Positions 26,570 through 42,391 of a DNA stretch of 64,000 nucleotides are shown here, one piece after another. Each line of letters begins with the position of its first letter. Position 1 is the first letter of the stretch. Below the pieces are notes generated by a model, which was not told where the DNA came from, searched no databases, and worked only from the letters and a program-made list of their open reading frames with translations. The translations under genes and the position numbers were made by a program. Source of the stretch: Candidatus Aminicenantes bacterium (lineage in GTDB: Bacteria; Acidobacteriota; Aminicenantia; UBA2199); NCBI GenBank assembly GCA_029938635.1, contig JAOZUQ010000005.1, positions 1,363 to 65,362 on the forward strand, given 5' to 3'.

Positions 26570-28654
26570 ATGGAAAATTTTTCAGAGAATGCCTTGAAAA
26601 TTCTACGGGCCAGATATTTCAAAAAAAATGCTGATGGGGAGCTGACAGAGAAAAAACCTTCCGACCTGTTCGAGCGGGTCTCAAAATATATAGCAAAAGC
26701 CGAAAAAAATGAAGATGACAGGAAATTCTGGGAGGATAAATTCTACAATTCCATGATGAACAGGGATTTCATGCCGAATTCTCCAACTCTTACAGGAGCG
26801 GATAGAGGAATGTGTCTCTCCGCCTGCTTTGTACTCCCGATCAAGGATTCACTTGAAAAGATCTTTGAAACAGTAAAAAATGCCGCCCTCGTTCACAAAG
26901 AAGGAGGTGGAACCGGATTTGACTTTTCACTTATAAGGCCTCAGGGTAGTTTTGTTAAAAAAACTCAGGGGATTGCCTCCGGGCCTGTTTCATTCCTTAA
27001 AGTAATAGATGCCGGCACTGAAGCTGTAAAACAGGGCGGGACAAGGCGTGGCGCCAACATGGGAGTTCTGAGAGTAGATCATCCCGATATCAAAGAATTT
27101 ATCACGATGAAAGATGACGGAAAAACAGCCCTGAACTTTAATATTTCCGTTGCAATTACAAATGATTTTATTGAAGCAGTTAAGAATAAAACAACTTATG
27201 ACCTGATCGATCCCAAGGACAATGAGGTCGTAGGGAAAATGTCCGCAACCGAAATAATGGAACTGATAGTGGATTCCGCCTGGAGGACAGGCGATCCGGG
27301 ACTGATATTCATTGATAAAGTGAATGAGTTGAATCCGACAAGAATGCAGGGGCCGATCAGAGCGACAAACCCCTGCGGAGAGCAGCCACTTCATGATTTT
27401 GAATCCTGTAATCTCGGATCCATTAATGTATCAAATTTTTTCTCACCTGATAAAGAGGATATGTTCGATTGGGAACGGTTTACAGAGATGATCCAGATGG
27501 GGATCAGGTTTCTGGATAATGTCATTGATGTTAACAAATACCCATTGAAAGAAATTGATAAAATAGCCAAAAGCAACCGGAGGATCGGACTGGGTATCAT
27601 GGGATTTGCAGATCTTCTTATCAAAAAAGAGCTCAGATATGATTCGGATGAGGCACTCGAATTCGGGAGAAAGATCGCAACTTTCCTAAGAAGTGAAGCG
27701 GAGAATGCATCAAGAGGCCTTGCGAAAGAAAGAGGTAACTTCCCGGGTATTGATCAATCGATATACAAAGGGAAACAGATGAGGAATGCAACAGTTCTTA
27801 CCATTGCCCCCACAGGAACAATCTCAAGGATAGCGGGCTGCTCATCCAGTATAGAGCCAGTATTTGCTTTTAAGATCATATCGAAGATCCTGGATAGTGA
27901 AATAAAGGATTTCCACCCGCTCTATCAGGAATGGGAAGAGAAACACGGAGATGAAGCGGTTCCTGAATATTTCATTTCAGCCTCTGAGATCTCACCTGAT
28001 AATCATATAAAAATGCAGGAAGTATTCCAGCTGAGTGTAGACAGTGCCGTTTCAAAAACAATCAATTTTGCAAACAATGCATCAAGAGAAGATATATCCG
28101 ATGCCTATATTATGGCATTCGGCATGGAAGTGAAGGGGATAACTGTATACAGGGACGGATGCCGTGCAATACAGGTGCTTAATAATATGGATAAAAAAGG
28201 CAATCCTGAGCCTCTCGGGAGGCCGGATTCACTCCCGTCAATGACTCATAAAGTTTCTACGGGACTGGGCAGGCTCTATATTACAATATCACACTTTAAT
28301 CATAAACCTTTTGAGGTTTTCTGTTCTATCGGTAAGAGCGGATATTCTACAATGGCAGATGCAGAAGCGATCGGAAGGCTTACATCACTGGCACTAAGAA
28401 GCGGCATCTCAGCTGAAGCGGTTGTGAGTCAGCTTAAAGGGATCGGTGGATCTGAACCGACCTTCCACAATGGAGCTTTGATCCAGTCCATCCCGGATGC
28501 AATAGCACAGGCTCTGGAAAAACATATTGGAGAGGTTATAACTAACAATCAGGATATGAACTCCATTACATGCCCGATGTGCGGAGCATCATTACCTGAT
28601 GAAAAGTGTCCGACCTGCCCGAATTGTGCATGGACAAAATGCGGCGGAACCTGA
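26570..28654 (+). CDS. nrdJ: Class II (adenosylcobalamin-dependent) ribonucleoside reductase
   Basis: 694 aa. N-terminal ...ILRARYFKK...FMPNSPTLTGA..., C-terminal Cys-rich zinc ribbon CPMCGASLPDEKCPTCPNCAWTKCGG. AGGAGG SD 5 nt before the ATG. Confidence 0.9.
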   Translation: MENFSENALKILRARYFKKNADGELTEKKPSDLFERVSKYIAKAEKNEDDRKFWEDKFYNSMMNRDFMPNSPTLTGADRGMCLSACFVLPIKDSLEKIFETVKNAALVHKEGGGTGFDFSLIRPQGSFVKKTQGIASGPVSFLKVIDAGTEAVKQGGTRRGANMGVLRVDHPDIKEFITMKDDGKTALNFNISVAITNDFIEAVKNKTTYDLIDPKDNEVVGKMSATEIMELIVDSAWRTGDPGLIFIDKVNELNPTRMQGPIRATNPCGEQPLHDFESCNLGSINVSNFFSPDKEDMFDWERFTEMIQMGIRFLDNVIDVNKYPLKEIDKIAKSNRRIGLGIMGFADLLIKKELRYDSDEALEFGRKIATFLRSEAENASRGLAKERGNFPGIDQSIYKGKQMRNATVLTIAPTGTISRIAGCSSSIEPVFAFKIISKILDSEIKDFHPLYQEWEEKHGDEAVPEYFISASEISPDNHIKMQEVFQLSVDSAVSKTINFANNASREDISDAYIMAFGMEVKGITVYRDGCRAIQVLNNMDKKGNPEPLGRPDSLPSMTHKVSTGLGRLYITISHFNHKPFEVFCSIGKSGYSTMADAEAIGRLTSLALRSGISAEAVVSQLKGIGGSEPTFHNGALIQSIPDAIAQALEKHIGEVITNNQDMNSITCPMCGASLPDEKCPTCPNCAWTKCGGT

Positions 28655-28656
28655 TT
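28605..28656 (+). repeat. Direct repeat copy 1 (last 16 codons + stop of nrdJ)
   Basis: AGTGTCCGACCTGCCCGAATTGTGCATGGACAAAATGCGGCGGAACCTGATT is identical to 36211..36262. Confidence 0.9.
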
Positions 28657-29601: not shown

Positions 29602-32600
29602 TCAGCTAACGCTGTTTTTCATTTTAAGTTCTCTTGCCGAATCCGTAACCGCATTTATCTTTACTGCAAAACTATTTTTCTCAGCAATCTCTTTATCTGA
29701 TATCAAATGGATATCAAGCAGTCCCTCTGTTTTGTATCCGGTCCTTTGATAGTTCAATTCAGCAAGTGTAAGACTCCATCCGTCAAGCCATAATAACAGA
29801 TCACTTTTTTGCCTTTTTGTTCCGTCAAAATGAACCAGCAGATCAATATCACTACAAGGCCCGGCTGTTGCATTTTTAGTACTTCCGAAAACATAGATAG
29901 CTTTTACCCCAAAACGATCCGGGTCTAAATTAGCACTGATCTGTTCGGCCATTCTCAATCTCCATTTCCAATAATCATCCGCAACAAAGAATGGGCCTGA
30001 TTTGATGTCATCCTGTTTTTCACTCACCTGATCAGTACCGGATTTCGTTATAACAGCAATTGCCTCCCCCAGGTCTGAGTTCATTAATATCTGCAATGGC
30101 TCTCCATCGCAATTATCAGGAACGTCAATTACTTTAACAACATTTTCCATATCTTTATATTCGGGGACAATATCACCCAATATGTTTTTTGACCTGAGAA
30201 AAAAATCTTCTTTAAATACTATATCTTTGTCATCAGGATAAAGTGGAAGATACCTTATCGAGGCTTCTACAAGATCTTGAAAAAAGTGTGTCCCGAATGA
30301 CAATTCGGGAGTATAATTCCCTTTGGACCTTGCAATTTCAATTAATGCAGCAGTATTATTAATGTCTGAATATGTAACATTAACTCCAAGTTTTATATCA
30401 CCCCTGGAACCCCATCTACCCGGCCCAAGTAATATGAATTGCCTTTTAGGCAGAATATTATTCAGTTTCCCGACTATTCTCCCGATCTTCTTAAGATCTT
30501 CAAGGTTTGATAGTTTTGAATATTCATTCGGATCAACGTAAACAACATGTGTAACATTAGGAATAAATCCATCTGAAATATATTTATTTCCTGTAAAAAT
30601 TATCCTTTCATGAGGAATATTCCGTGGTATTGGAACAGAATGTGTGCTATGGAAGTAACTTTGAGCTCTGCATTGTAAAAGATATAAATTTGTCCCGTCA
30701 TGGGCAAATTCAATATCAACCGGAGTCTTAAGTTTTGTTTTCAACGTATCCATCATCCAGTTCATTTGATTAAGGAACTCGGATCCTTCCAGAAACCCCT
30801 GAAAGTTAACTACCAATTCATCTTCCTTAAATTTAATATTAAAGGCAGAAGCAGGTTTCTGGATCATATCTTCTTTTACAACAGATACCATATTATGAAT
30901 TCCGGGGATTAATGCACCGTGAGATTTTAAAAAATCTTCGATTTCGATCGTTTCAAAAATATTACTTTCAAGATTCAGTACATCAATATTTTTTGGCGAA
31001 TATCTTATAACTTCATCAGGAGTTATATTTACATTTAACCCTGGTTTTTTAGGTGCAATCAGGATCGGATAATCCTCGGCAATCCTGTCTACCGCTCTTG
31101 TTCCCAGTCCGGGGACCAATCTTATAAGCCCGTCATCCCTTTTAATCCTGGGGGACCATCTGAATTCATTACTACTGAATGCAACACCGGCAAAACTCGG
31201 TAAAAAATATTTTCCGATTTTTGTACCTACGACCTCCTGAATAATAATCCCCATTTCTTCATTAAAATCTAATAGTTCACGTTCTGCCCTGTATTGGATA
31301 GGATCAGGCCCGAATATGGATGAATAGACCTCTGCAATTGCATCGGTCAGAGCATTTAATTTCATTTCAGCAGTGCCCTGATTAGCAAGAAATAAACTTT
31401 TATATTTCCCGGAAAAACTGGCTCCGACCCTGTCTTCCAACAAACTTGAACTTCGGACAATAATCGGATTATCACCAAAATATTCAATAACCACTTTTAA
31501 TCCTCTCAGAATTTCAGGAGGAAATTGAGAGTTTTTTAAGATTTGTATAATATTAGGGTATTCCAGATGAATTTCACCTATATCCTTATATTTTTGCTCA
31601 TAGACATTCTCCAGATTATTATAGTGCAAAAAGTCGATTAATCCATCTGAAGTGATATACCATGTTTTTGGAATTTTAATCTTATGGGGAAACTTATCAA
31701 ACCCTGCAGAATTTTTTATAATGCTTGCGGCAAGAAAAAGGCCGGAACTTTTCCCCCCCAGTTTACCGAAACTATTTGAAGGAGACAGGATCTGTTTTAT
31801 AACACTAAAAAAATCCTCCAGATTTATATTATCTTTTGCAATTTTTATAAATTCCATTTGATCTGACAAGATCTTTCTGATAACGGAAGTTTTTATACTT
31901 TTTTCAGTTGCTGGTGACAATTTGACCTTTCCACTATTTAAAAATTTAAACCGTGTCAATGCGTTAATTATGTCAACAAGAGAGGAATTCGGATTTTCCA
32001 GGATAGTAACAAGAAATCTGGATTTCTCCTCATCAATCCAATTTCTGATAAGAGGCATTATATATTCATCAGCAAAATTTTTTGAAGCCAGGTCAAAAAT
32101 ATCATTACTAAATGAAATAATTTGATCCATCGAATCTTTTCTGGATGGTTGATTGATATCTTCAAAAAATACACTATTCTCACTTTTATTCTCAACTTCT
32201 TCATAGGTTTGAATTAATATGTCATTCGCTTCTGTAATGCTGTTTAAAAGGAGGTGATAAAGCATTTTTCTGGATATATATATATACAATTTAAGATTTG
32301 AATCTTTGAGCAGGTCTACGATCACCCGCCACTGAGGGCTTGATTCTAAAGCGATCTTTTCATCTGCTCTCTCCCATTTATTATGAATGCTTTTCAATTT
32401 TGAGTATAGGAAAACATGGCTTAATCTCTCAGCAATTGATTTGATCAATTGTCTCTCTTCCTTTAAAAACAAATTATCGATAGCTTCGTTTATTTTTCCT
32501 TTATAGGAAATAGTTATTTCGCCTGTTTCTTCTCCCTGAATTCTGATTTTTGCAGAAAGACTTTTTGAAGTTTCTTCATAATCTTCAAAACGATATTCCT

Positions 32601-32808
32601 GGCTTTCATAATCAATCTTTGCCTGAGCATTTTTTGGGAATTGCATCCCTTCAGGAATTGTTCTGATCACTGCATAGATAAGTTCATCAAGTGCTAATTC
32701 ACTATTTTCTAAAATCTCCTCGATACGATAGAGACAATTTAATTCCTTTTGCCTTTCCTGTAGAGAATGTAATAAAGTACTCGAATCTTTTTTTTTTGAA
32801 TCATTCAT
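29602..32808 (-). CDS. Multidomain protein: N-terminal helical region + PEP/pyruvate-binding (PPDK_N-like ATP-grasp) domain + C-terminal minimal nucleotidyltransferase (Pol-beta-type) domain
   Basis: 1068 aa. Middle region ...SFGKLGGKSSGL...IVRSSSLLEDRVGASFSGKY...GIIIQEVV... resembles the nucleotide-binding domain of PEP synthase/PPDK. C-terminus ...IYVFGSTKNATAGPCSDIDLLVHFDG... carries the hG[GS]-x(9-13)-DhD NTase signature. 4-nt overlap with the upstream paralog. Confidence 0.75.
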   Translation of the reverse strand: MNDSKKKDSSTLLHSLQERQKELNCLYRIEEILENSELALDELIYAVIRTIPEGMQFPKNAQAKIDYESQEYRFEDYEETSKSLSAKIRIQGEETGEITISYKGKINEAIDNLFLKEERQLIKSIAERLSHVFLYSKLKSIHNKWERADEKIALESSPQWRVIVDLLKDSNLKLYIYISRKMLYHLLLNSITEANDILIQTYEEVENKSENSVFFEDINQPSRKDSMDQIISFSNDIFDLASKNFADEYIMPLIRNWIDEEKSRFLVTILENPNSSLVDIINALTRFKFLNSGKVKLSPATEKSIKTSVIRKILSDQMEFIKIAKDNINLEDFFSVIKQILSPSNSFGKLGGKSSGLFLAASIIKNSAGFDKFPHKIKIPKTWYITSDGLIDFLHYNNLENVYEQKYKDIGEIHLEYPNIIQILKNSQFPPEILRGLKVVIEYFGDNPIIVRSSSLLEDRVGASFSGKYKSLFLANQGTAEMKLNALTDAIAEVYSSIFGPDPIQYRAERELLDFNEEMGIIIQEVVGTKIGKYFLPSFAGVAFSSNEFRWSPRIKRDDGLIRLVPGLGTRAVDRIAEDYPILIAPKKPGLNVNITPDEVIRYSPKNIDVLNLESNIFETIEIEDFLKSHGALIPGIHNMVSVVKEDMIQKPASAFNIKFKEDELVVNFQGFLEGSEFLNQMNWMMDTLKTKLKTPVDIEFAHDGTNLYLLQCRAQSYFHSTHSVPIPRNIPHERIIFTGNKYISDGFIPNVTHVVYVDPNEYSKLSNLEDLKKIGRIVGKLNNILPKRQFILLGPGRWGSRGDIKLGVNVTYSDINNTAALIEIARSKGNYTPELSFGTHFFQDLVEASIRYLPLYPDDKDIVFKEDFFLRSKNILGDIVPEYKDMENVVKVIDVPDNCDGEPLQILMNSDLGEAIAVITKSGTDQVSEKQDDIKSGPFFVADDYWKWRLRMAEQISANLDPDRFGVKAIYVFGSTKNATAGPCSDIDLLVHFDGTKRQKSDLLLWLDGWSLTLAELNYQRTGYKTEGLLDIHLISDKEIAEKNSFAVKINAVTDSARELKMKNSVS

Positions 32809-34553
32809 TTAAAGATCACTCCCTCACTTTTTCTCCCGTCAACTTTAATTTTCATAGGAGATTTTAATTTTATATGGCGGATATATTTCCCTTTCCATTT
32901 TATTTCTTGTTGACCCAACCAGTCCCAGTCAATGGGGATCCGGCTTTTCGTTGAAATTGAAAAATAAAAAATTCCGAGATTTGAAATATTATGGAAAAAA
33001 TGTGACCCTTGGCTCATATCAACAAATACACTTGCCAGAGAAGATTCGATTATCACTTCTGCTCCTGAAATCTCACCCCAGGTCACAGGAATTCCCAGCC
33101 ATGGATCAGATGAACCCCACCTTCCGAATCCGATCAAAGTATAATTTTCGTTTTCATTTACCAGGGTTCTGTTTACCATTGCAATCTCAGAAGCAATTTC
33201 TCTCGTATTTTTCAGATTGAAGGTCTCCGGCATAACATAAACGATATCTCTAATGTTATCTTTCTCACCATTGCCTAAAATGTTGTCTCCTGCAGTTAAA
33301 ACTGTTTCAGGGCTCCAACTCTCTTTTTCTGTATCCACAGGGTTGGAAAATGTCGCCATCGGGCGTACCTGCAACAAACTGAATTTATTCTTATCAGAGA
33401 TACTTTGCCCCAAAGATATGGCAAACTCAATCTCCACATCTGAGTTAAAATGAGATTCACATAGTTTTAAAATATCAATGATCAAATCATTCACAGGCAA
33501 TAATTTACTCTGAAGGATAGGGGCAAAATTTATCAACCTTGCACCCTTGTTTGCCACACCTATATCAAACCTGTCCGATTCATAATTGTAAGTGGAAGCA
33601 ATTTTTGATAATGAATTGTCATATTCCGCATCATTTATTGATAATTGAATTAGATATTCAGTTTCTTTGATCGGATCATAGGTCTTTATTTCACCCATAT
33701 TTACTGCCCAGAATTCTGTTTGAGATTGTTTCAGCAGATCATTAGCACTATTAAAAGGTGGTGGCGCATCGGGATATATCGGGCAATAATCCCATGAATT
33801 TCCTCCATCTACGATTGATTTGCCCAAACCCAAAGCTAAGCTGACCACACCATCTTCGGGTTCCGAATGCCCGGATGTATAAAAATTATAAGATTTAGCA
33901 ACTCCTGATATATTCGGATAGAACCTGTTATGATGTTGTTGTCCTACAACTTCCTGAATAATAACACCCATTTTTTCTTCATTTATATCTTTTCCTGTTG
34001 ATTTCAGATATGTTTTTGCATTAATGAAAAATGTTGATGAATAAATAAATTTTATTGCTTCTACAAGTTTTTTAAATCTTACATCAGGGTCCGGATGATT
34101 GTTCGGGATCATTTTTGTTTCATAAACACCTGCAAGTGGAATATTCAAGCTGTCTTCCAGAAGACTTGAAGATCTTATTGCGAGAGGCAATTTCATTTTT
34201 TCAATCAATCCTCTTATATCTCCCGATAACCTGACAGGTAACTCGGAATTCAAAAAATGATGTGCAATTCGTTCATCACTTTGCTCTGATAATGCAACTT
34301 TATACAGATTGTTCTGCTTCAGGAATTCATCAAAATATTGAGTTGTGATAACAATTGTCCTGGGAATACTAATTTCGAATTTCAGATCTTTTTCTTCATC
34401 TCCATATGAAAGTAATTTATTCCGGATTTTTGCCAATCCACCGGCTTTTCCGCCAAATTGACCTTTTCCGATAAATGTAAAATCATTGGATTCATCATAA
34501 AAATCCCTGTTAAAAGGGTTAATTCCTTCTAAGTGATTATCTGATCCTTCCAT
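32805..34553 (-). CDS. PEP/pyruvate-binding (PPDK_N-like) domain protein, paralog of the central domain of 29602..32808
   Basis: 582 aa. ...GKGQFGGKAGGLAKI...LAIRSSSLLEDS...GVIIQEVVG...GFGRWGSSDP... parallels motifs in the neighbouring 1068-aa protein (GGKSSGL, VRSSSLLED, IIQEVVG, GPGRWGSRGD). No PEP-utilizing His domain or TIM-barrel. Confidence 0.75.
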   Translation of the reverse strand: MEGSDNHLEGINPFNRDFYDESNDFTFIGKGQFGGKAGGLAKIRNKLLSYGDEEKDLKFEISIPRTIVITTQYFDEFLKQNNLYKVALSEQSDERIAHHFLNSELPVRLSGDIRGLIEKMKLPLAIRSSSLLEDSLNIPLAGVYETKMIPNNHPDPDVRFKKLVEAIKFIYSSTFFINAKTYLKSTGKDINEEKMGVIIQEVVGQQHHNRFYPNISGVAKSYNFYTSGHSEPEDGVVSLALGLGKSIVDGGNSWDYCPIYPDAPPPFNSANDLLKQSQTEFWAVNMGEIKTYDPIKETEYLIQLSINDAEYDNSLSKIASTYNYESDRFDIGVANKGARLINFAPILQSKLLPVNDLIIDILKLCESHFNSDVEIEFAISLGQSISDKNKFSLLQVRPMATFSNPVDTEKESWSPETVLTAGDNILGNGEKDNIRDIVYVMPETFNLKNTREIASEIAMVNRTLVNENENYTLIGFGRWGSSDPWLGIPVTWGEISGAEVIIESSLASVFVDMSQGSHFFHNISNLGIFYFSISTKSRIPIDWDWLGQQEIKWKGKYIRHIKLKSPMKIKVDGRKSEGVIFK

Positions 34554-36210: not shown

Positions 36211-36262
36211 AGTGTCCGACCTGCCCGAATTGTGCATGGACAAAATGCGGCGGAACCTGATT
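36211..36262 (+). repeat. Direct repeat copy 2 (orphan fragment of nrdJ 3' end)
   Basis: 52/52 identical to 28605..28656. Not in frame with any start codon, so not a coding duplicate. Sits upstream of gdhA and beside a GC-rich terminator. Confidence 0.9.
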
Positions 36263-36275
36263 CAATCTAATTTAT

Positions 36276-36312
36276 TCTCAAAATAAGAAGGGCGGGGCTG
36301 ATGCCCCGCCCT
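36276..36312 (-). terminator. Rho-independent terminator of 36354..37445 (possibly bidirectional)
   Basis: GGGCGGGGC-tgat-GCCCCGCCC hairpin followed on the minus strand by UUCUUAUUUU. Confidence 0.65.
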
Positions 36313-36353
36313 GTATTTCCTGAAAATCTAAAAATTTTAATTCTTGTTTACTC

Positions 36354-37445
36354 CTATTTATAATTGGTACCTATCGGCCCATCCACAAGAAGCTTTATCT
36401 GATATATAATAGTGTCACCCGGTGTCACTTTCCATTCAATGCCTGTGGTCCAGTCGGATGATCCCACAGGGAGAGCTGGTGAAGGATTCTTAATTATTTC
36501 ATCACTTGAAGTCTTTTTCCACTGATGTTTTACCATTTTCTTAAATACCCATCCGTTCTTCAGAGAAATGTGATATGAATCAGTCCCTTTATCATCACCT
36601 ATTGCTCCCCACATGTTCTTATGAAAACCGCCTATAGCAATCTCAGGCCCGTCGGTGACATTGCAGGCATCAAAATTACTATCATCCCCACAGTGAAGAC
36701 AGGTTACATCCCCAAAGGCCACCCATTTTTCCTCTCTCCCTTTGAACTGGGGTTTACCGAATGGATCGCTTTTAAAATTAAACTTAGATACAACAACCAC
36801 ACTGACAATCTGGTTCGGCTGGCCGTTGGCAGACTGCGGAATATATCCATTTGCTCTTTCATTACCTTCCCATGTGACATTTTCAAGCTCAATATGCCCC
36901 CCCGGGAAATTTCCCTTAATAAGGATCCTTCCTTTCTGGGGTCCGAAAATTTTTCCCTTGACAAACAACTGAGTTCCAGACTGTAATGCACCCAGTGGAA
37001 TCGGCAATATAGATTCAACAACAGGCTTAAACATCCCCGGTTTGGGTTTGAACTGTGGTTTTTTCTTTATTTTCTTAATCACACCGGGATTGATAAGGAA
37101 TTTAGTCTTAATTTCGAATTCATTACTATCCCCTAGACATGTGTTCTCAGCTTTCACCCTTATCACATAGGTCCCTGCTTCAAAATCTGCAGGAATTTTC
37201 CAGTTCTTTTGGGTCACTCCGGAAGCAGTAAGCTGAAGTTTGAAATTAGCCTGATCGACACTCCCCTTGAAAATATTGATCTTATAATCCGTTTCCTGAC
37301 ACCCGTTTGGCGTCCATTTGATTAAATAAGTATTTCCCTTGAACCAGCCAACACTCCCGTCAGGTTTATTAACAGTAATTGCTGCTCCTGATACCTGAAA
37401 AACACCAAAAATCACCAACAATAAAACTAAATAAAACTTTTTCAT
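36354..37445 (-). CDS. Secreted protein with Kre9/KNH-like (Ser/Thr-rich GPI-anchored family) beta-sandwich domain; paralog of 39498..40634
   Basis: The ORF extends to 37529, but the likely start is ATG at 37445 (MKKFYLVLLLVIFGVFQVSGA signal peptide, AAGGAGATGG SD). Domain ITVNKPDGSVGWFKGNTYLIKWTPNG...YKINIFKG...QLTASG...GTYVIRVKAE...GDSNEFEI fits the Kre9_KNH pattern. Confidence 0.7.
   Translation of the reverse strand: MKKFYLVLLLVIFGVFQVSGAAITVNKPDGSVGWFKGNTYLIKWTPNGCQETDYKINIFKGSVDQANFKLQLTASGVTQKNWKIPADFEAGTYVIRVKAENTCLGDSNEFEIKTKFLINPGVIKKIKKKPQFKPKPGMFKPVVESILPIPLGALQSGTQLFVKGKIFGPQKGRILIKGNFPGGHIELENVTWEGNERANGYIPQSANGQPNQIVSVVVVSKFNFKSDPFGKPQFKGREEKWVAFGDVTCLHCGDDSNFDACNVTDGPEIAIGGFHKNMWGAIGDDKGTDSYHISLKNGWVFKKMVKHQWKKTSSDEIIKNPSPALPVGSSDWTTGIEWKVTPGDTIIYQIKLLVDGPIGTNYK
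36725..37382 (-). repeat. ~650-bp near-identical nucleotide block shared with 39916..40569
   Basis: Hand alignment shows >90% nucleotide identity across the N-terminal halves of the two paralogous genes. The spurious 105-aa ORFs at 36704..37021 and 39893..40210 are near-identical for the same reason. Confidence 0.85.
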
Positions 37446-37488
37446 TTTTCCATCTCCTTTTGAATTTATTTGTTCATCTGAATTAACT

Positions 37489-39345
37489 TTAATCCTTTTC
37501 GAGGATCTCAATTTTAAGTTTAATTCCATTCAGAAAAATCTTGCATTTGGATTGATTGTGCTGGAAACTTTCATCCGGTCCGACAAACATTATTCCGTGA
37601 TTGCTGTTCGGGAAGCCCATCCATCCCTGGGCAGCAGTAGTCATATTCGATTTTGGATCAGGTATCAGGCCCATATTAACAATAAAACCATCACTAAAAG
37701 GAGCGTTAACTTTGTAAACCGACACATTGCAATCCACAGGGTAATAGGTTTTATTATACTTAAGCTTTGCGCTCAGGATAATACCTTTCCCCTTGAATTG
37801 TTTAAGATCGAAATATGCATGGGTTCTCCATATATCGCCGTAATAGGTCTTCCCGTGATTAGCCGCATAATTTGAATATCCGGTCCATCCCTGAGAACTC
37901 CCCCCGGCCGCCACACAGCCGCCTACCTGGGACTCCAAGTGAGCCAGATTACCAGCATCTACCGCCCAGGTAGATCTTTTGCAATAATTTCCGAACGAAC
38001 CGTTTATCTCATAAGTTTTTACTTTGGTTCCTATCTGGACCGTGAACATTCCACTTTTGCCTGATGCTTTGCCGTCTGTCCTGGATATTTTTATTACATA
38101 TTTTGCCGGGCCGGTACCTTTGGGAATGAACCAGTTGTATGTTGATGTATCCGGAGGTTTACCTCCCCCTTTGTAAAGCTTTACTACATTTACACCAAGG
38201 ATAGTTTTTATTGTTCTTACGAATGTATTTCCTGAATAATTATAAAGATCTATCTTTATTGTATTTTTCTTTGTAAATTTATTTTTCCATTTAATAAGGT
38301 GGGTTTTACCTTCCTTCCAGAAACTTGATGTTGACGGCTTTAATATTTCTATATTACCATGAATGGGCGTAATTACCATTTCCGGGGTGATCTGAAATTT
38401 TGGCTTGATCATGAATGGGTCCGAATCATCTGTCACCTGATCATCGCTCATGATCCTCAGGCGATATGTCCCGGTCGCATAATTTCCCGGTATCTTCCAG
38501 CTTTTTGACCCGTTGTTGGATCCGGTCAATTGCTCAAGAAAATTTGGCTGGGAAATAACTGAACCTCTATAGATGTTGATCTTAACACCTGCAGATTGCT
38601 GCCCGGTCTTGTCCCATGTTATTAAATTTGTGATCCCTTTTCTCCAGATTGTGCTGGAGTCAGGTTTTAAAATTGTGATCGACGGTTCTTCTTCCGGTAG
38701 TGCATCTTCGATAACAAGTAATCCGCTGTCACCGACACATAAGTTGTCATCGGTCTTAATCCTTATATAATAGTTCCCCGGATCAAAAGTATTCGGGATC
38801 GTCCAACTTTTTGTATTTGTACCTGAAGCTGTCAATTGAAGCTTAAAGTTCGACTGATTGATACTATCTTTAAAAATATTGATCTTATAACTGGTAACCG
38901 AACAATTTGTCGGGACCCATGTAATTGAATGTGTGGAACCTTTTTTCCAGACCGCCCCCGGCCCGGGACTGGTAACTGTAATTGAGGCTGATTGAGGTTT
39001 ATCTGCAATAATAAATAATCCACTATCTCCTACACACAGGTTGTCATCCGTTTTGACCCTTATAATATAATTTCCTGAGTCAAAGGTGCCCGGTATCGTC
39101 CAGCTTTTTGTATTTGTGCCTGAAGCAGTCAGTTGAAGCTTAAAGTTCGGCTGACTGATACTATCTTTAAAAATATTGATCTTATAACTGGTAATCGAAC
39201 AATTTGACGGAGTCCAGGTGATGTTGTGAGTGTCACCTTTGTACCAGGTAACTCCATTCCCGGGAGCTGTAACATTAATACTCTGTGACCAGATCACTCC
39301 GCTAAAAAACATAATTAGTAATAATAATATCCTGAATTTTTTCAT
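37489..39345 (-). CDS. Secreted protein with three tandem Kre9/KNH-like ~90-aa repeats plus a distinct C-terminal domain
   Basis: 618 aa with signal peptide. Repeats NVTAPGNGVTWYKGDTHNITWTPSNCSITSYKINIFKDSISQPNFKLQLTASGTNTKSWTIPGTFDSGNYIIRVKTDDNLCVGDSGLFII (x2 almost identical), then a third, more divergent copy. Confidence 0.75.
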   Translation of the reverse strand: MKKFRILLLLIMFFSGVIWSQSINVTAPGNGVTWYKGDTHNITWTPSNCSITSYKINIFKDSISQPNFKLQLTASGTNTKSWTIPGTFDSGNYIIRVKTDDNLCVGDSGLFIIADKPQSASITVTSPGPGAVWKKGSTHSITWVPTNCSVTSYKINIFKDSINQSNFKLQLTASGTNTKSWTIPNTFDPGNYYIRIKTDDNLCVGDSGLLVIEDALPEEEPSITILKPDSSTIWRKGITNLITWDKTGQQSAGVKINIYRGSVISQPNFLEQLTGSNNGSKSWKIPGNYATGTYRLRIMSDDQVTDDSDPFMIKPKFQITPEMVITPIHGNIEILKPSTSSFWKEGKTHLIKWKNKFTKKNTIKIDLYNYSGNTFVRTIKTILGVNVVKLYKGGGKPPDTSTYNWFIPKGTGPAKYVIKISRTDGKASGKSGMFTVQIGTKVKTYEINGSFGNYCKRSTWAVDAGNLAHLESQVGGCVAAGGSSQGWTGYSNYAANHGKTYYGDIWRTHAYFDLKQFKGKGIILSAKLKYNKTYYPVDCNVSVYKVNAPFSDGFIVNMGLIPDPKSNMTTAAQGWMGFPNSNHGIMFVGPDESFQHNQSKCKIFLNGIKLKIEILEKD

Positions 39346-39419
39346 GTAATTCTCCTATTTATATAGATAAAACTTTTAGTATTAATATCTCAAAAATAAT
39401 TTATCATGTAACTAATTCT

Positions 39420-39453
39420 GAGATAAGAGAAGGCGGGGCATTGAGCCCCGCCC
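39420..39453 (-). terminator. Rho-independent terminator of 39498..40634
   Basis: GGCGGGGC-attga-GCCCCGCC hairpin, same family as the hairpin at 36290-36312. Confidence 0.6.
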
Positions 39454-39497
39454 TGTACTTTATGATTCAACAACCAAATGCATCAAAAATATATATA

Positions 39498-40634
39498 TTA
39501 TTTATAATGAGTGCCGAGGGGTCCTTCGACAATTATTTTAATCCTGTACCGGACATTGTCATTAGGTGTTACTTTCCAGTGAACAATAGCACTCCAGTTC
39601 GGTTGACCAGCTGGAAATGAAGGGGTAGGACCTGACAACACTTCATCCCCTGAACTCTTAGACCACTCAACTTTCTGCATACTTTTCAGGACCCAACCGT
39701 TTTTAAGACTAATTGAGTAGACATCATCTCCCACATCATCACCTATGGCTCCCCATACGTTTGAATGATAACCACAAATCGCATAAGCTGTAGCACATCC
39801 CACAGTAAATTCCTCTCCTGGCCAGATATCACCACTTCCAGATGAAACACCATTACAAACATTACTGTTACCATCATTTCCGCAACTGACACCTACTGCA
39901 TCAGCAGTAAGCACTTTTTCTTCTCTCCCCTTGAACTGGGGATTACCGAATGGATCGCTTTTAAAAGTAAACTTAGATACAACAACCACACTGACAATCT
40001 GGTTCGGCTGACCGTTGGCAGACTGAGGAATAAATCCATTTGCCTTTGAATTAATTTCCCATGTGACATTTTCAAGCTCAATATGCCCCCCCGGGAAATT
40101 ACCCTTAATAAGGATCCTTCCTTTCTGGGGTCCGAAATTTTTTCCCCTGACAAACAACTGAGTCCCAGGTTGTAACGCACCCAGTGGAATCGGCAATATA
40201 GATTCAACAACAGGCTTAAACATCCCCGGTTTGGGTTTGAACTGCGGTTTCTTCTTGAACTTCTTAATCACATCAGGATTGATATAGAATTTGTTTTTTA
40301 TCTCAAACAGTTTGCTATCCCCTAGACATGTATTCTCAGCCTTAACCCTGATCACATACATCCCTACTTCAAAATCTGCAGGGATTTTCCAGTTCTTTTG
40401 GGTCACTCCGGAAGCAGTAAGCTGAAGTTTGAAATTTGCCTGAAGGACACTCCCCTTGAAAATATTGATCTTATAATCAGTTTCCTGACATCCGTTTGGC
40501 GTCCATTTGATTAAATAAGTATTTCCCTTGAACCAGTCAACACTCCCATCCGGTTTGTTGACAGTAATGGATCCAGGAAAGATCAAGCCTGTACAAATCA
40601 AAATAGTAATAAATAAAACTGATAATTTTCTCAT
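39498..40634 (-). CDS. Secreted Kre9/KNH-like domain protein, paralog of 36354..37445
   Basis: 378 aa with signal peptide. N-terminal ~220 aa nearly identical to 36354..37445. C-terminal Cys/Gly-rich region diverges. Confidence 0.75.
   Translation of the reverse strand: MRKLSVLFITILICTGLIFPGSITVNKPDGSVDWFKGNTYLIKWTPNGCQETDYKINIFKGSVLQANFKLQLTASGVTQKNWKIPADFEVGMYVIRVKAENTCLGDSKLFEIKNKFYINPDVIKKFKKKPQFKPKPGMFKPVVESILPIPLGALQPGTQLFVRGKNFGPQKGRILIKGNFPGGHIELENVTWEINSKANGFIPQSANGQPNQIVSVVVVSKFTFKSDPFGNPQFKGREEKVLTADAVGVSCGNDGNSNVCNGVSSGSGDIWPGEEFTVGCATAYAICGYHSNVWGAIGDDVGDDVYSISLKNGWVLKSMQKVEWSKSSGDEVLSGPTPSFPAGQPNWSAIVHWKVTPNDNVRYRIKIIVEGPLGTHYK
39916..40569 (-). repeat. Second copy of the ~650-bp near-identical block (partner of 36725..37382)
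   Basis: See 36725..37382. Confidence 0.85.
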
Positions 40635-41281: not shown

Positions 41282-42391
41282 CTAGTAATTCTCCAGACGT
41301 GTCAATGTGGTGCTCAATTCAAGTACTTCCACCGGGCAATCCTTCCATCCACTTTCCCAGCATACAAGTAGTTCGCAGTTCTTCGTAAGCCTTTCGTTTT
41401 TTTTCAGATCGAGACTGTTTAGCGCAAATCCAAGGTTAACAGCTTCCCATTTTTCCTCTTCAGACGACTTGTTTCTTTTCCCTGAGAAACAATACCGGTC
41501 TAACCCGAAAGACTCAACTATAAAGTTCAACTCTTCACAAACCACTCCGAATATAAATATCACTCCCCGTGTATCGATCGGAGCAAATTTAATTCCTCTG
41601 AAATTCAGTGGGTTACCCTTTTCTTTTTCAGATTTTGTAATTGCAGGCTTAATAGTTTCAGGAATTATTTTTTTCTTCTTCTTTTTCTGAACATCCATAG
41701 CCATCAGGTTCTCGATCCCACCACCATCATCCGGAACATAATCAAAACTGGGCTCCGACTCTTCTTTACTCTTCCTGCTCTTCTCCTTATTTTCGATCTC
41801 ATCAATTGTAAGGATATTATCACTTCCGAAATTATCGCTGAATTTATCCGATTCGGATTTTTCAATGCCCATTTCATTTTTTTTAATGGAAACAAGTGTC
41901 TCCTCAAAATTTATCTTTGACTTCTTTTTGCTATCCTTTTTTTTGGTAACCATAATCGTTTTATCAGGAGAAACAATCTCGATAGGCCCTTCATCCATCA
42001 CAATGGTTTTATCAGGAGATGGCGCCGATTTCCGGTCATACTTGGATTTAGCAAGATTAAGTGCATCAGTAAGAGTTCTCCACCTCTGCTCATAATCTTC
42101 TTTTGAATATCTTCCGTTCTTTTCTATTAATGCATATGTAGGAGTTTCTCCGAACTCCTTCTCAATCCTGAGCAGGTCTTTAAGCAGGTCCTTATCTTTG
42201 ACCTCTTCAACAAAAGTCCCGTCTTCAAGTCCTGCTTCCCTCAGGGCATCATGCCATGAGCTGATATAGAAATTTATTGTACTAACAGGGATCATTGTAT
42301 TCTTTATGAAGTCTTTTTTCTTAAGGCTACTGGTTTTAAGGTTGGATGCCACCCTTTTTATCTCTTCTATGATCTGATTTTTATCATACAT
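41282..42391 (-). CDS. Hypothetical protein: two globular domains joined by a Lys/Glu/Ser-rich low-complexity linker
   Basis: 369 aa. Long KK/EE/SD-rich central region. C-terminal ~110 aa carries conserved Cys/Trp (..LLVCWESGWKDCP..). 2-nt spacing to the upstream purA. Confidence 0.55.
   Translation of the reverse strand: MYDKNQIIEEIKRVASNLKTSSLKKKDFIKNTMIPVSTINFYISSWHDALREAGLEDGTFVEEVKDKDLLKDLLRIEKEFGETPTYALIEKNGRYSKEDYEQRWRTLTDALNLAKSKYDRKSAPSPDKTIVMDEGPIEIVSPDKTIMVTKKKDSKKKSKINFEETLVSIKKNEMGIEKSESDKFSDNFGSDNILTIDEIENKEKSRKSKEESEPSFDYVPDDGGGIENLMAMDVQKKKKKKIIPETIKPAITKSEKEKGNPLNFRGIKFAPIDTRGVIFIFGVVCEELNFIVESFGLDRYCFSGKRNKSSEEEKWEAVNLGFALNSLDLKKNERLTKNCELLVCWESGWKDCPVEVLELSTTLTRLENY

Follow-up and report, generated by a model that had tools for sequence, protein, structure and literature searches.

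Organization of the locus

The window, that is, the whole stretch of 64,000 nucleotides analysed here, comes from an Aminicenantes (Acidobacteriota) chromosome and contains, between thioredoxin and ribonucleotide-reductase (RNR) genes, three consecutive open reading frames on the minus strand: A (36354-37445), B (37489-39345) and C (39498-40634). The neighbouring genes have housekeeping functions (thioredoxin, HNH-repeat protein, purA, GDH, PPDK_N proteins and RNR), and the content of the trx-RNR interval was different in every relative examined. All three proteins (3/3) carry a signal-peptide-like hydrophobic segment at the N-terminus. A sequence-only reading of this DNA had proposed three consecutive minus-strand genes for signal-peptide proteins made of Kre9/KNH-type modules, and both the reading frames and the PF10342 profile agree with it.

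Gene C encodes a protein of 378 aa, identical to P0001 in public assemblies. According to the AlphaFold model and Pfam, it comprises a signal peptide (residues 1-21), a Kre9/KNH-like Ig module (22-117), a Lys/Pro-rich linker (118-140), a TIG-like beta-sandwich (141-231) and a "C-type" C-terminal domain (232-378). The 363-aa product of gene A has the same architecture, but with an "A-type" C-terminal domain (residues 232-363, positions 36357-36752). Its start is the ATG of MKKF at position 37445, preceded by a GGAG ribosome-binding site, and not the ORF-maximal one at 37529; the same start and length were called in a separate ENA assembly, whose protein (P0004) is one substitution apart. Gene B (618 aa) encodes a signal peptide, four Kre9/KNH modules and a C-terminal domain without annotation. 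As gene A begins 43 nt past the stop codon of B and there is no hairpin in the gap, the two genes are probably co-transcribed. Neither A nor C is truncated: both genes have a signal peptide, a GGAG ribosome-binding site and a terminator-like hairpin of their own.

The hairpin downstream of A, AGGGCGGGGC-ATCA-GCCCCGCCCT (36289..36312, minus strand), is GC-rich, is followed by a T-rich tail and resembles a terminator, as does the GC-rich hairpin AGGGCGGGGC-TCAAT-GCCCCGCCTT downstream of C (39430..39454, minus strand). Sites of the form GGGCGGGGC-loop-GCCCCGCC occur only twice in the 64 kb, after A and after C, with 0 expected; the near-identical hairpins reported after both flanking genes are thus real. 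An Rfam search returned sub-threshold noise only. In the close relative L012, the A-side hairpin directly abuts the convergent RNR gene and the C-side hairpin has a counterpart with stem mismatches.

Domain content of the three proteins

In a Pfam profile search, PF10342 (Kre9_KNH) matched four stretches of B with 70.1 bits (E 2.7e-19). The scores of A (19.8 bits) and C (17.2 bits) were both under the Pfam gathering threshold of 24.6 bits, and it is through the 50-56% identity between their module and modules 1 and 2 of B that they are linked to the Kre9/KNH type, which had been proposed from the sequence. Several close homologues have precomputed PF10342 matches. In the AlphaFold model of C (mean pLDDT 86, three beta-sandwich domains), residues 22-113 are modelled as an eight-strand Ig-like beta-sandwich, with block pLDDT values of 90-94.

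Gene B had been credited with three copies of the module and contains four, all on the minus strand: M1 (38986-39282), M2 (38689-38985), M3 (38380-38670) and M4 (38035-38358), the last of which matched PF10342 in isolation with an E-value of 1.8e-4. Identity reaches 75% between modules 1 and 2, about 40% for module 3 and about 28% for module 4. When B was compared with a 91%-identical relative, the number of modules differed by exactly one 297-nt unit, which the relative lacks. The C-terminal domain of B (about 180 aa, 37492-38034, minus strand) is unannotated and gave no match in Pfam, NCBIfam or PDB sequences. For the TIG-like domain, no Pfam match was obtained with residues 129-231 of C even at E<=10; the homologue P0029 carries a precomputed PF01833 (IPT/TIG) match, and there was a weak profile match to residues 498-575 of CGTase (E 0.29).

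The idea that the module is uncommon in bacteria was not supported: one search gave 182 matches, and most of the 120 matches listed have a precomputed PF10342 annotation. The few named carriers among these 120 belong to Aminicenantes/Acidobacteriota, Bacteroidetes, Ignavibacteriaceae and two archaeal MAGs. The PF10342 papers found in a literature search were all fungal, and the search brought up nothing on prokaryotic PF10342 or on the A/C protein family. NCBI names some of the homologues as a Ser-Thr-rich GPI-anchored family, whose hallmarks, a Ser/Thr-rich region and a GPI-attachment signal at the C-terminus, are absent here.

We then looked at export and anchoring. Among the sorting signals that the sequence-only reading had advised looking for (T9SS CTD, LPXTG, lipobox), none was found. 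No T9SS CTD (TIGR04183, PF18962) scored above the cutoff, the sole match (17.3 bits for a cutoff of 23) lying inside a Kre9 module of B and not at the C-terminus. A regex and hydropathy scan detected no LPXTG, no lipobox and no transmembrane helix (maximum KD of 1.05 outside the signal peptide); no signal-peptide cysteine is conserved across the family alignment, and NCBIfam gave nothing for A or C. In the PDB, the full-length model matched best to proteins with Ig-like domains in tandem, among them Bacteroides SGBP-B and complement MG domains. These matches were generic tandem-Ig ones, with a TM-score of about 0.2. From the models, we infer that A and C may be secreted binding proteins made of a stalk and a head.

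Genes A and C share a sharply bordered block

Codons 22-240 of A and C, which encode the Kre9 module, the linker and the TIG-like domain, form a common block located at 36726..37382 in A and at 39915..40571 in C (both minus strand). The two copies are in direct orientation, 3.19 kb apart, and their alignment is gap-free, with 60 differences over 657 nt (90.9% identity). The block of about 650 bp with more than 90% identity noticed beforehand is thereby confirmed, with coordinates correct within 2 nt, and the self-alignment value lies above the limit of ~85% set in advance as refuting. Such a similarity cannot be chance. Outside the block, identity falls to 40% on the signal peptide side and to about 55-60% in the C-terminal part, and the borders are sharp. 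The duplication had been called internal; the repeat is one between two genes and does not lie within one.

Synonymous divergence follows the same borders. In the block, dS is 0.30 and dN 0.05 (dN/dS of about 0.17), as compared with a dS of 1.8 in the signal peptide and 2.4, that is, saturation, in the tail. The duplication is therefore not "very recent" as had been thought: judging from the saturation in the tail and from its type-specific clades (see below), the A/C split is older than the divergence of the genomes compared. Identity inside the block is also patchy, 60-nt bins of 96-98% alternating with a stretch of 76-80% at the end of the module and in the linker. With an overall identity of 91% and a dS of 0.30, the last full-length conversion between A and C, as read from the sequence, is not recent, and only sub-tracts are 96-98% identical. 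The sequence from the end of the block to the hairpin is highly diverged between A and C. The proposal that the duplication included the terminator remains plausible, as GGGCGGGG-type hairpins also follow family genes in relatives; the event would be old and not recent.

Probable concerted evolution in related genomes

Tandem pairs are also present in L001, L003 and L008, and all genome comparisons were made on metagenome-assembled contigs. For the N-terminal part (N-part), the nucleotide identity of A and C within a genome was 91, 87 and 84% (window, L001 and L003, respectively), compared with 73-77% between the window and L001 and 55-58% between either of these and L003. The C-terminal part (C-part) clusters by subtype, with 65-83% nucleotide identity among A-types and 66-67% among C-types, versus 59-66% between A and C of the same genome. 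Neighbour-joining trees gave the same picture. In the N-part tree, the A and C genes of the window group together with 100% bootstrap, and the two genes of L001 are sisters, as are those of L003, whereas in the C-part tree the A gene of the window belongs to an A-type clade with P0005, P0010 and P0015 (92.5%, or 99% with P0019). The two trees are incongruent. In the three pairs (window, L001 and L003), the 3' border of the homogenized part falls at the GREEK motif.

Since the N-part groups by genome while the C-part groups by subtype in three lineages, these comparisons argue for gene conversion, as the sequence-only reading had suspected: over the block, the two paralogues of one genome resemble each other more than orthologues from different genomes do. 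Taken as a whole, the explanation that we regard as very probable is that these secreted, all-beta proteins of several domains are encoded in a variable island, in which A and C would be ancient tandem paralogues under concerted evolution by gene conversion over their Ig and TIG part. The tandem pairs of L008 and L021 show little or no homogenization of the N-part, so that conversion appears to be lineage-specific, with no family-wide rule.

Two further observations concern this gene family. P0003 is a mosaic protein, which may be an indirect hint of conversion variants in a population, as may the contig break within the block in one relative. The single-copy gene of L002 (P0010) might be a pop-out recombinant joining the 5' part of C to the 3' part of A, but the signal-peptide type does not track the subtype (the A-type protein of L004 has a "GLIFP" signal peptide).

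The exchange had been tentatively connected with adhesin or S-layer-like proteins or phase-variable antigens, a connection that the analysis did not support. Programmed antigenic or phase variation of a surface antigen, by cassette conversion, slipped-strand switching or promoter inversion, would fit with gene conversion operating in a variable locus, with the number of B modules changing among relatives and with a G7 run found in both copies. However, this run, the sole homopolymer, is absent from relatives, and both copies are full-length, expressed-looking genes, with no silent cassettes and no promoterless or truncated donors. Neither inverted repeats flanking a promoter nor an invertible element was found, and no surface anchor either. 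Moreover, it is the conserved part that is exchanged, the reverse of what happens in cassette systems of the pilE/pilS, vlsE or msp2 style. We consider programmed variation very improbable.

A recent duplication of the whole gene, followed by very fast divergence of the signal peptide and tail under positive selection, would explain both the highly identical central block and the homologous hairpins that follow the two genes. It is extremely unlikely given that the tail subtypes are common to other genomes, where they form the clades described above, that synonymous sites are saturated in the tail (2.4 vs 0.30 in the block) and that the same mosaic is seen in three lineages.

An assembly or binning artefact, in which strain variants would have been joined into a chimeric MAG contig, also deserved attention, as the MAG assembly of one relative does break at the repeat. 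Yet 60 sites distinguish the two copies, whose flanks are unrelated; NCBI and JGI records contain identical proteins on a contig of 92.7 kb, and gene A recurs in the independent ENA assembly. L012, although without gene A, matches the C-B junction as well as the hairpin/RNR-tail sequence downstream of A, and the recurrence of tandem pairs in L001, L003 and L008 is a last argument that makes an artefact scarcely credible. As for purifying selection or codon constraints maintaining the block alone, with no DNA exchange, the low dN/dS would agree with it, but the eight-fold contrast in dS means that protein-level selection cannot explain the identity of the block, nor can it bring paralogues of one genome closer than orthologues or produce incongruent trees, and this reading is next to untenable.

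The C-terminal domain of A and C

The tails of A and C had been described as different domains. They are homologous, with 50% aa identity and the invariant residues in common, and represent two anciently diverged subtypes. In C, this family-defining, all-beta domain of about 145 aa (39501..39941, minus strand) was delineated by an alignment of 33 homologues, in which the invariant residues are C251, C260, H290, N292, G302, D304, N312-G313-W314, S328, W347, W353, D359, Y363 and G371-P372. The motifs of the tail are CGxDGNxNxCN, HxNxWGAxGDDxGxD and LKNGW, the first of which would be a disulfide-closed hairpin. The model of the domain has a pLDDT of 87.7 and a pTM of 0.82.

The tail family has 391 cluster representatives at E<=1e-3 among 1.84 billion, and those checked had no annotation; ten distant members showed no informative Pfam domains or names. 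The tail itself has no Pfam match, its best Foldseek E-values were 0.07 in the PDB and 0.045 in BFVD, and sequence and profile searches of the PDB gave no significant match. By hhalign, it is unrelated to the tail of B and its family. A word-index homology search with the tail alignment retrieved 2 fragments only, and locus scans with narrow search patterns identified 4 genome loci and 10 metagenome loci. It is possible, though rather doubtful, that the tail is an undescribed fold or family that marks some 390 secreted-protein clusters from uncultivated bacteria and whose co-resident subtypes are held distinct by selection while conversion locks the stalks. If true, this would amount to a two-headed or heteromeric binding system in which a common stalk has to stay matched to one partner.

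Discussion

In the mechanism that we propose, RecA-type non-reciprocal recombination between the direct copies would repeatedly overwrite the Ig and TIG part and keep it at about 91% identity. The conversion tracts would halt at GREEK, where the divergent tails start, a pattern that at least three related lineages seem to have acquired independently of one another; conversions running into the tail would be purged by selection or blocked by tail divergence. The proteins would be exported by Sec and signal peptidase I and be soluble or non-covalently held. Their Ig/TIG part could be a common stalk or interaction module, and the two tail subtypes heads with different, possibly metal- or glycan-dependent, ligand specificities. 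That the same 3' border recurs in three lineages suggests that neither tail subtype can functionally replace the other.

No new mechanism is revealed here, and the case is one of clean but ordinary concerted evolution. It nevertheless provides a tidy natural instance of concerted evolution confined by domain limits, from a candidate-phylum-level lineage for which metagenomes are almost the only source, and it flags a tail domain family, unannotated but confidently modelled, for structure and ligand work. Repeats of this kind also break MAG assemblies; in one relative the contigs stop within the block, where the final 67 codons of L004 overlap the start of P0005.

The N-terminal Ig module of ~95 aa, predicted to be a beta-sandwich, relates the Aminicenantes proteins to the fungal ones of PF10342, namely Kre9/Knh1 and the Ser-Thr-rich GPI-anchored (SGP1-type) proteins. 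They depart from these in lacking both a region rich in Ser/Thr (S+T 11-18%) and a hydrophobic GPI signal at the C-terminus, which is polar; in addition, the host is bacterial and the module is one unit within multi-domain proteins. The best structural match, Bacteroides SGBP-B (PDB 6e9b/6e57, E 7e-7), is likewise a string of Ig-like domains bearing a C-terminal domain, but with a TM-score of only 0.18 the similarity is a generic tandem-Ig one, and the Aminicenantes proteins have neither a lipoprotein anchor nor SusC/D or glycoside-hydrolase neighbours.

Gene conversion is known to drive concerted evolution in bacterial paralogues such as tufA/tufB and the Helicobacter pylori outer-membrane paralogues of the babA/babB type. 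In these systems, non-reciprocal exchange keeps some parts near-identical while the ligand-specific segment stays divergent, which results in mosaic identity and incongruent trees. The Aminicenantes pair has no known host-interaction or antigenic context, and it differs from both systems in that its members are in tandem, 3.19 kb apart, with putative conversion tracts delimited by domains and covering the Ig and TIG part only.

Organization of genes A, B and C

Genes C (39498-40634, 378 aa), B (37489-39345, 618 aa) and A are consecutive ORFs on the minus strand. The ORF of A extends up to 37529; we took the MKKF ATG at 37445 as its real start (363 aa), since it is preceded by GGAG and since P0004, a homologue from an independent ENA assembly, is the same 363-aa protein apart from one substitution. 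C and A are each followed by a GC-rich hairpin resembling a terminator (39430-39454 and 36289-36312, respectively), and none lies in the 43 nt between the B stop and the A start; thus, C is likely transcribed alone and B together with A.

The neighbours of the cluster are housekeeping genes: thioredoxin (trx), an HNH-repeat protein and purA on one flank, and glutamate dehydrogenase, two PPDK_N proteins, a metallophosphoesterase and class II ribonucleotide reductase (RNR) on the other. The HNH_repeat (homing-endonuclease-associated) protein (41282-42391, minus strand, 369 aa) has a long Lys/Glu-rich low-complexity middle, and the order purA - HNH_repeat gene - thioredoxin is kept in all relatives. 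The adjoining PPDK_N genes (29602-32808 and 32805-34553, both minus strand) overlap by 4 nt and each encode a PPDK_N (PEP/pyruvate-binding) ATP-grasp domain, fused in the larger one with a Pol-beta-type nucleotidyltransferase domain; the same gene pair adjoins family genes in the relative L003. Those homologues that bear names come from Candidatus Aminicenantes/Acidobacteriota MAGs.

Evidence for gene conversion between A and C

Codons 22-240 of A and C could be aligned without gaps (36726-37382 and 39915-40571) with 60 differences in 657 nt (90.9% identity), so that the coordinates proposed in the sequence-only reading proved essentially exact. Outside this block identity was 40% in the signal-peptide codons and about 55-60% in the C-terminal third. 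The block itself is patchy: identity reaches 96-98% in several 60-nt bins but is 76-80% where the Ig module ends and in the linker. By the Nei-Gojobori method, dS was 0.30 in the block (dN 0.05), 1.8 in the signal peptide and 2.4, a saturated value, in the C-terminal domain or tail (dN 0.42).

That reading had described a very recent duplication with different C-terminal domains. The two tails are in fact homologous (50% aa identity), and both subtypes, A-type (WLV..CLHCGDDGNFNACN...) and C-type, recur across other genomes; tandem A-type and C-type pairs were found in L001 (P0005 and P0002, MAG GCA_039714475.1) and L003 (P0015 and P0011, JGI contig). Taking the conserved GREEK motif at the tail start as the boundary, we compared the N-part (Kre9 Ig module and TIG-like domain) and the tail separately. 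N-part nucleotide identity within a genome was 91% (window), 87% (L001) and 84% (L003), compared with 73-77% between the window and L001 and 55-58% between either of these and L003. The tails, by contrast, cluster by subtype, with 65-83% nucleotide identity among A-types, 66-67% among C-types and 59-66% between A and C within a genome. Bootstrapped neighbour-joining trees of 20 family members disagreed between the two parts: in the N-part tree, A and C of the window are grouped at 100% bootstrap and the L001 and L003 pairs are each sisters, whereas in the tail tree the A-type clade (window A, P0005, P0010 and P0015) is found at 92.5%, or at 99% with P0019. Along the genes, identity falls off abruptly at the same GREEK border in each of the three pairs, and there is a dip in the linker. 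Incongruent trees, an eight-fold lower tract dS and recurrent, co-located borders thus argue from sequence comparison for an old duplication on which gene conversion has acted repeatedly and independently in each lineage; the conversion already proposed is upheld, the recency is not. Conversion is lineage-specific rather than universal, since two further tandem pairs, L008 and the distant, high-GC L021, show little or no homogenisation.

A G7 homopolymer (36930-36936 and 40119-40125, FPGG codons), found in A and C alike, spread between them along with the conversion block; in relatives these residues are encoded without such a run, which is therefore probably no conserved slippage site. Phase or antigenic variation, as earlier suggested, finds no support: silent cassettes are absent, we detected no invertible element, the G7 run is not shared by relatives, and the exchanged part is the conserved and not the variable one.

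The inverted motif GGCGGGG...CCCCGCC occurs in the 64-kb window only in the two hairpins, with none expected by chance. Homology between the two is recognisable over the hairpins and some 55 nt of surrounding sequence (about 70-75% identity), but not in the adjacent 3' UTR and tail coding sequence. Relatives likewise have one GGGCGGGG-type hairpin behind the leading gene of the tandem pair and another behind the gene that precedes RNR (L001, 1053-1077 and 3012-3037; L003, 6374-6396 and 7750-7776), the copy nearest RNR being a shared convergent terminator. The ancestral duplication probably took in a terminator, as had been proposed, but this event was old and does not speak for recency.

A recombinationally active locus between trx and RNR

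Each of the relatives examined has a different gene content between trx and RNR: a single A-type gene in L002, B (521 aa) and one family member in L005, B (620 aa) - A-type - C-type - 230-aa Kre9 protein in L004 and L001, C-type - A-type in L003, and C - B only in L012. L004 (9911-10111) and L001 (1-1011) are contigs of MAG GCA_039714475.1 that end and begin in one A-type gene; the break falls within the homogenised tract. L004 stops with 67 codons that overlap the P0005 start, and the overlapping residues are identical. Short-read assemblies are evidently broken by the repeat. L012 (GCA_023139515.1), whose locus is missing gene A, carries a B orthologue (286-1848) with 91.2% nucleotide identity to window 37489-39345 and lacking exactly 297 nt, one Kre9 module period, with an in-register join within modules 1/2; this gap reflects either unequal crossover, with real copy-number variation, or assembly collapse. 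In P0003 (L013, 386-1459), which comes from another sample, the Kre9 module is by eye near-identical to that of window C and the TIG-like domain and tail are clearly more divergent (about 70% overall), which suggests a further mosaic and domain-wise exchange between strains. The locus is thus recombinationally active.

A 52-nt exact direct repeat (28605-28656 and 36211-36262) corresponds to the RNR 3' end (...CPTCPNCAWTKCGGT*), one copy being the true gene end and the other an orphan adjoining the hairpin of A. The 7.55 kb between them hold the metallophosphoesterase, the PPDK_N proteins (1068 aa, with the nucleotidyltransferase domain, and 582 aa) and glutamate dehydrogenase. Since the hairpin lies directly against the real RNR end in L012, this four-gene block looks inserted or translocated, with duplication of the junction.

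Domain architecture and predicted function

Pfam assigned the repeat unit (about 95 aa) to PF10342 (Kre9_KNH), as first read: B scored 70 bits, clearly over threshold, and A and C fell just under it. The match in B covers four stretches instead of the three copies initially counted, the fourth module being divergent (28% identity). The module had been thought uncommon in bacteria; however, PF10342 is present in numerous other prokaryotic proteins, among them most of the 120 matches listed, and is therefore not rare in prokaryotes (named matches among those listed: Bacteroidetes, Ignavibacteriaceae, Aminicenantes/Acidobacteriota and two archaeal MAGs). In the literature searched, PF10342 is treated for fungi only. 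The module in the window has neither the Ser/Thr richness nor the GPI features of the fungal proteins that name the family; the S+T content of A, B and C is ordinary.

As modelled by AlphaFold (mean pLDDT 86), C comprises three beta-sandwich domains, namely the Kre9-type Ig module, the TIG-like sandwich and, at the C-terminus, a domain of about 145 aa, with a low-confidence Lys/Pro-rich linker between the first two and a second low-confidence loop (residues 271-279) within the tail. Aligning 33 homologues showed that the TIG-like and C-terminal domains form the conserved core of the family; more distant homologues have a different N-terminal module or several copies of it. The tail, modelled alone with confidence (pLDDT 87.7, pTM 0.82), has as invariants C251, C260, H290, N292, D304, NGW312-314, S328, W347, W353, D359, Y363 and GP371-372. 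It matched no family in Pfam, nothing in PDB sequence and profile searches, and nothing by Foldseek (best E 0.07 in PDB and 0.045 in BFVD, TM <= 0.35, counted as no match). When 1.84 billion cluster representatives were searched exhaustively with a profile, 391 proteins were retrieved (E<=1e-3), in which the domain is almost always C-terminal, in proteins of 280-480 aa; of ten checked, none was named or carried a further domain that was informative. The C-terminal domain of B (about 180 aa) is unannotated and unrelated to the A/C tail.

All three proteins carry signal-peptidase-I-type leaders. Of the sorting signals looked for in A, B and C, neither a lipobox nor LPXTG was found, nor any hydrophobic segment past the leader, and the sole match to a T9SS sorting domain was sub-threshold and internal. 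We thus predict that the proteins are periplasmic, released or non-covalently held. The most economical reading would be an Ig/TIG stalk bearing a ligand-binding head: the A-type and C-type heads would provide two specificities preserved by selection, the stalks drifting together through conversion. One may speculate that the acidic/Asn-rich invariant motifs (DGNxN, GDDxGxD) form a metal-assisted binding site. The likeness of the full-length model to known strings of Ig-like domains, those of Bacteroides SGBP-B and of the complement MG arrays, is a generic one (TM about 0.2).
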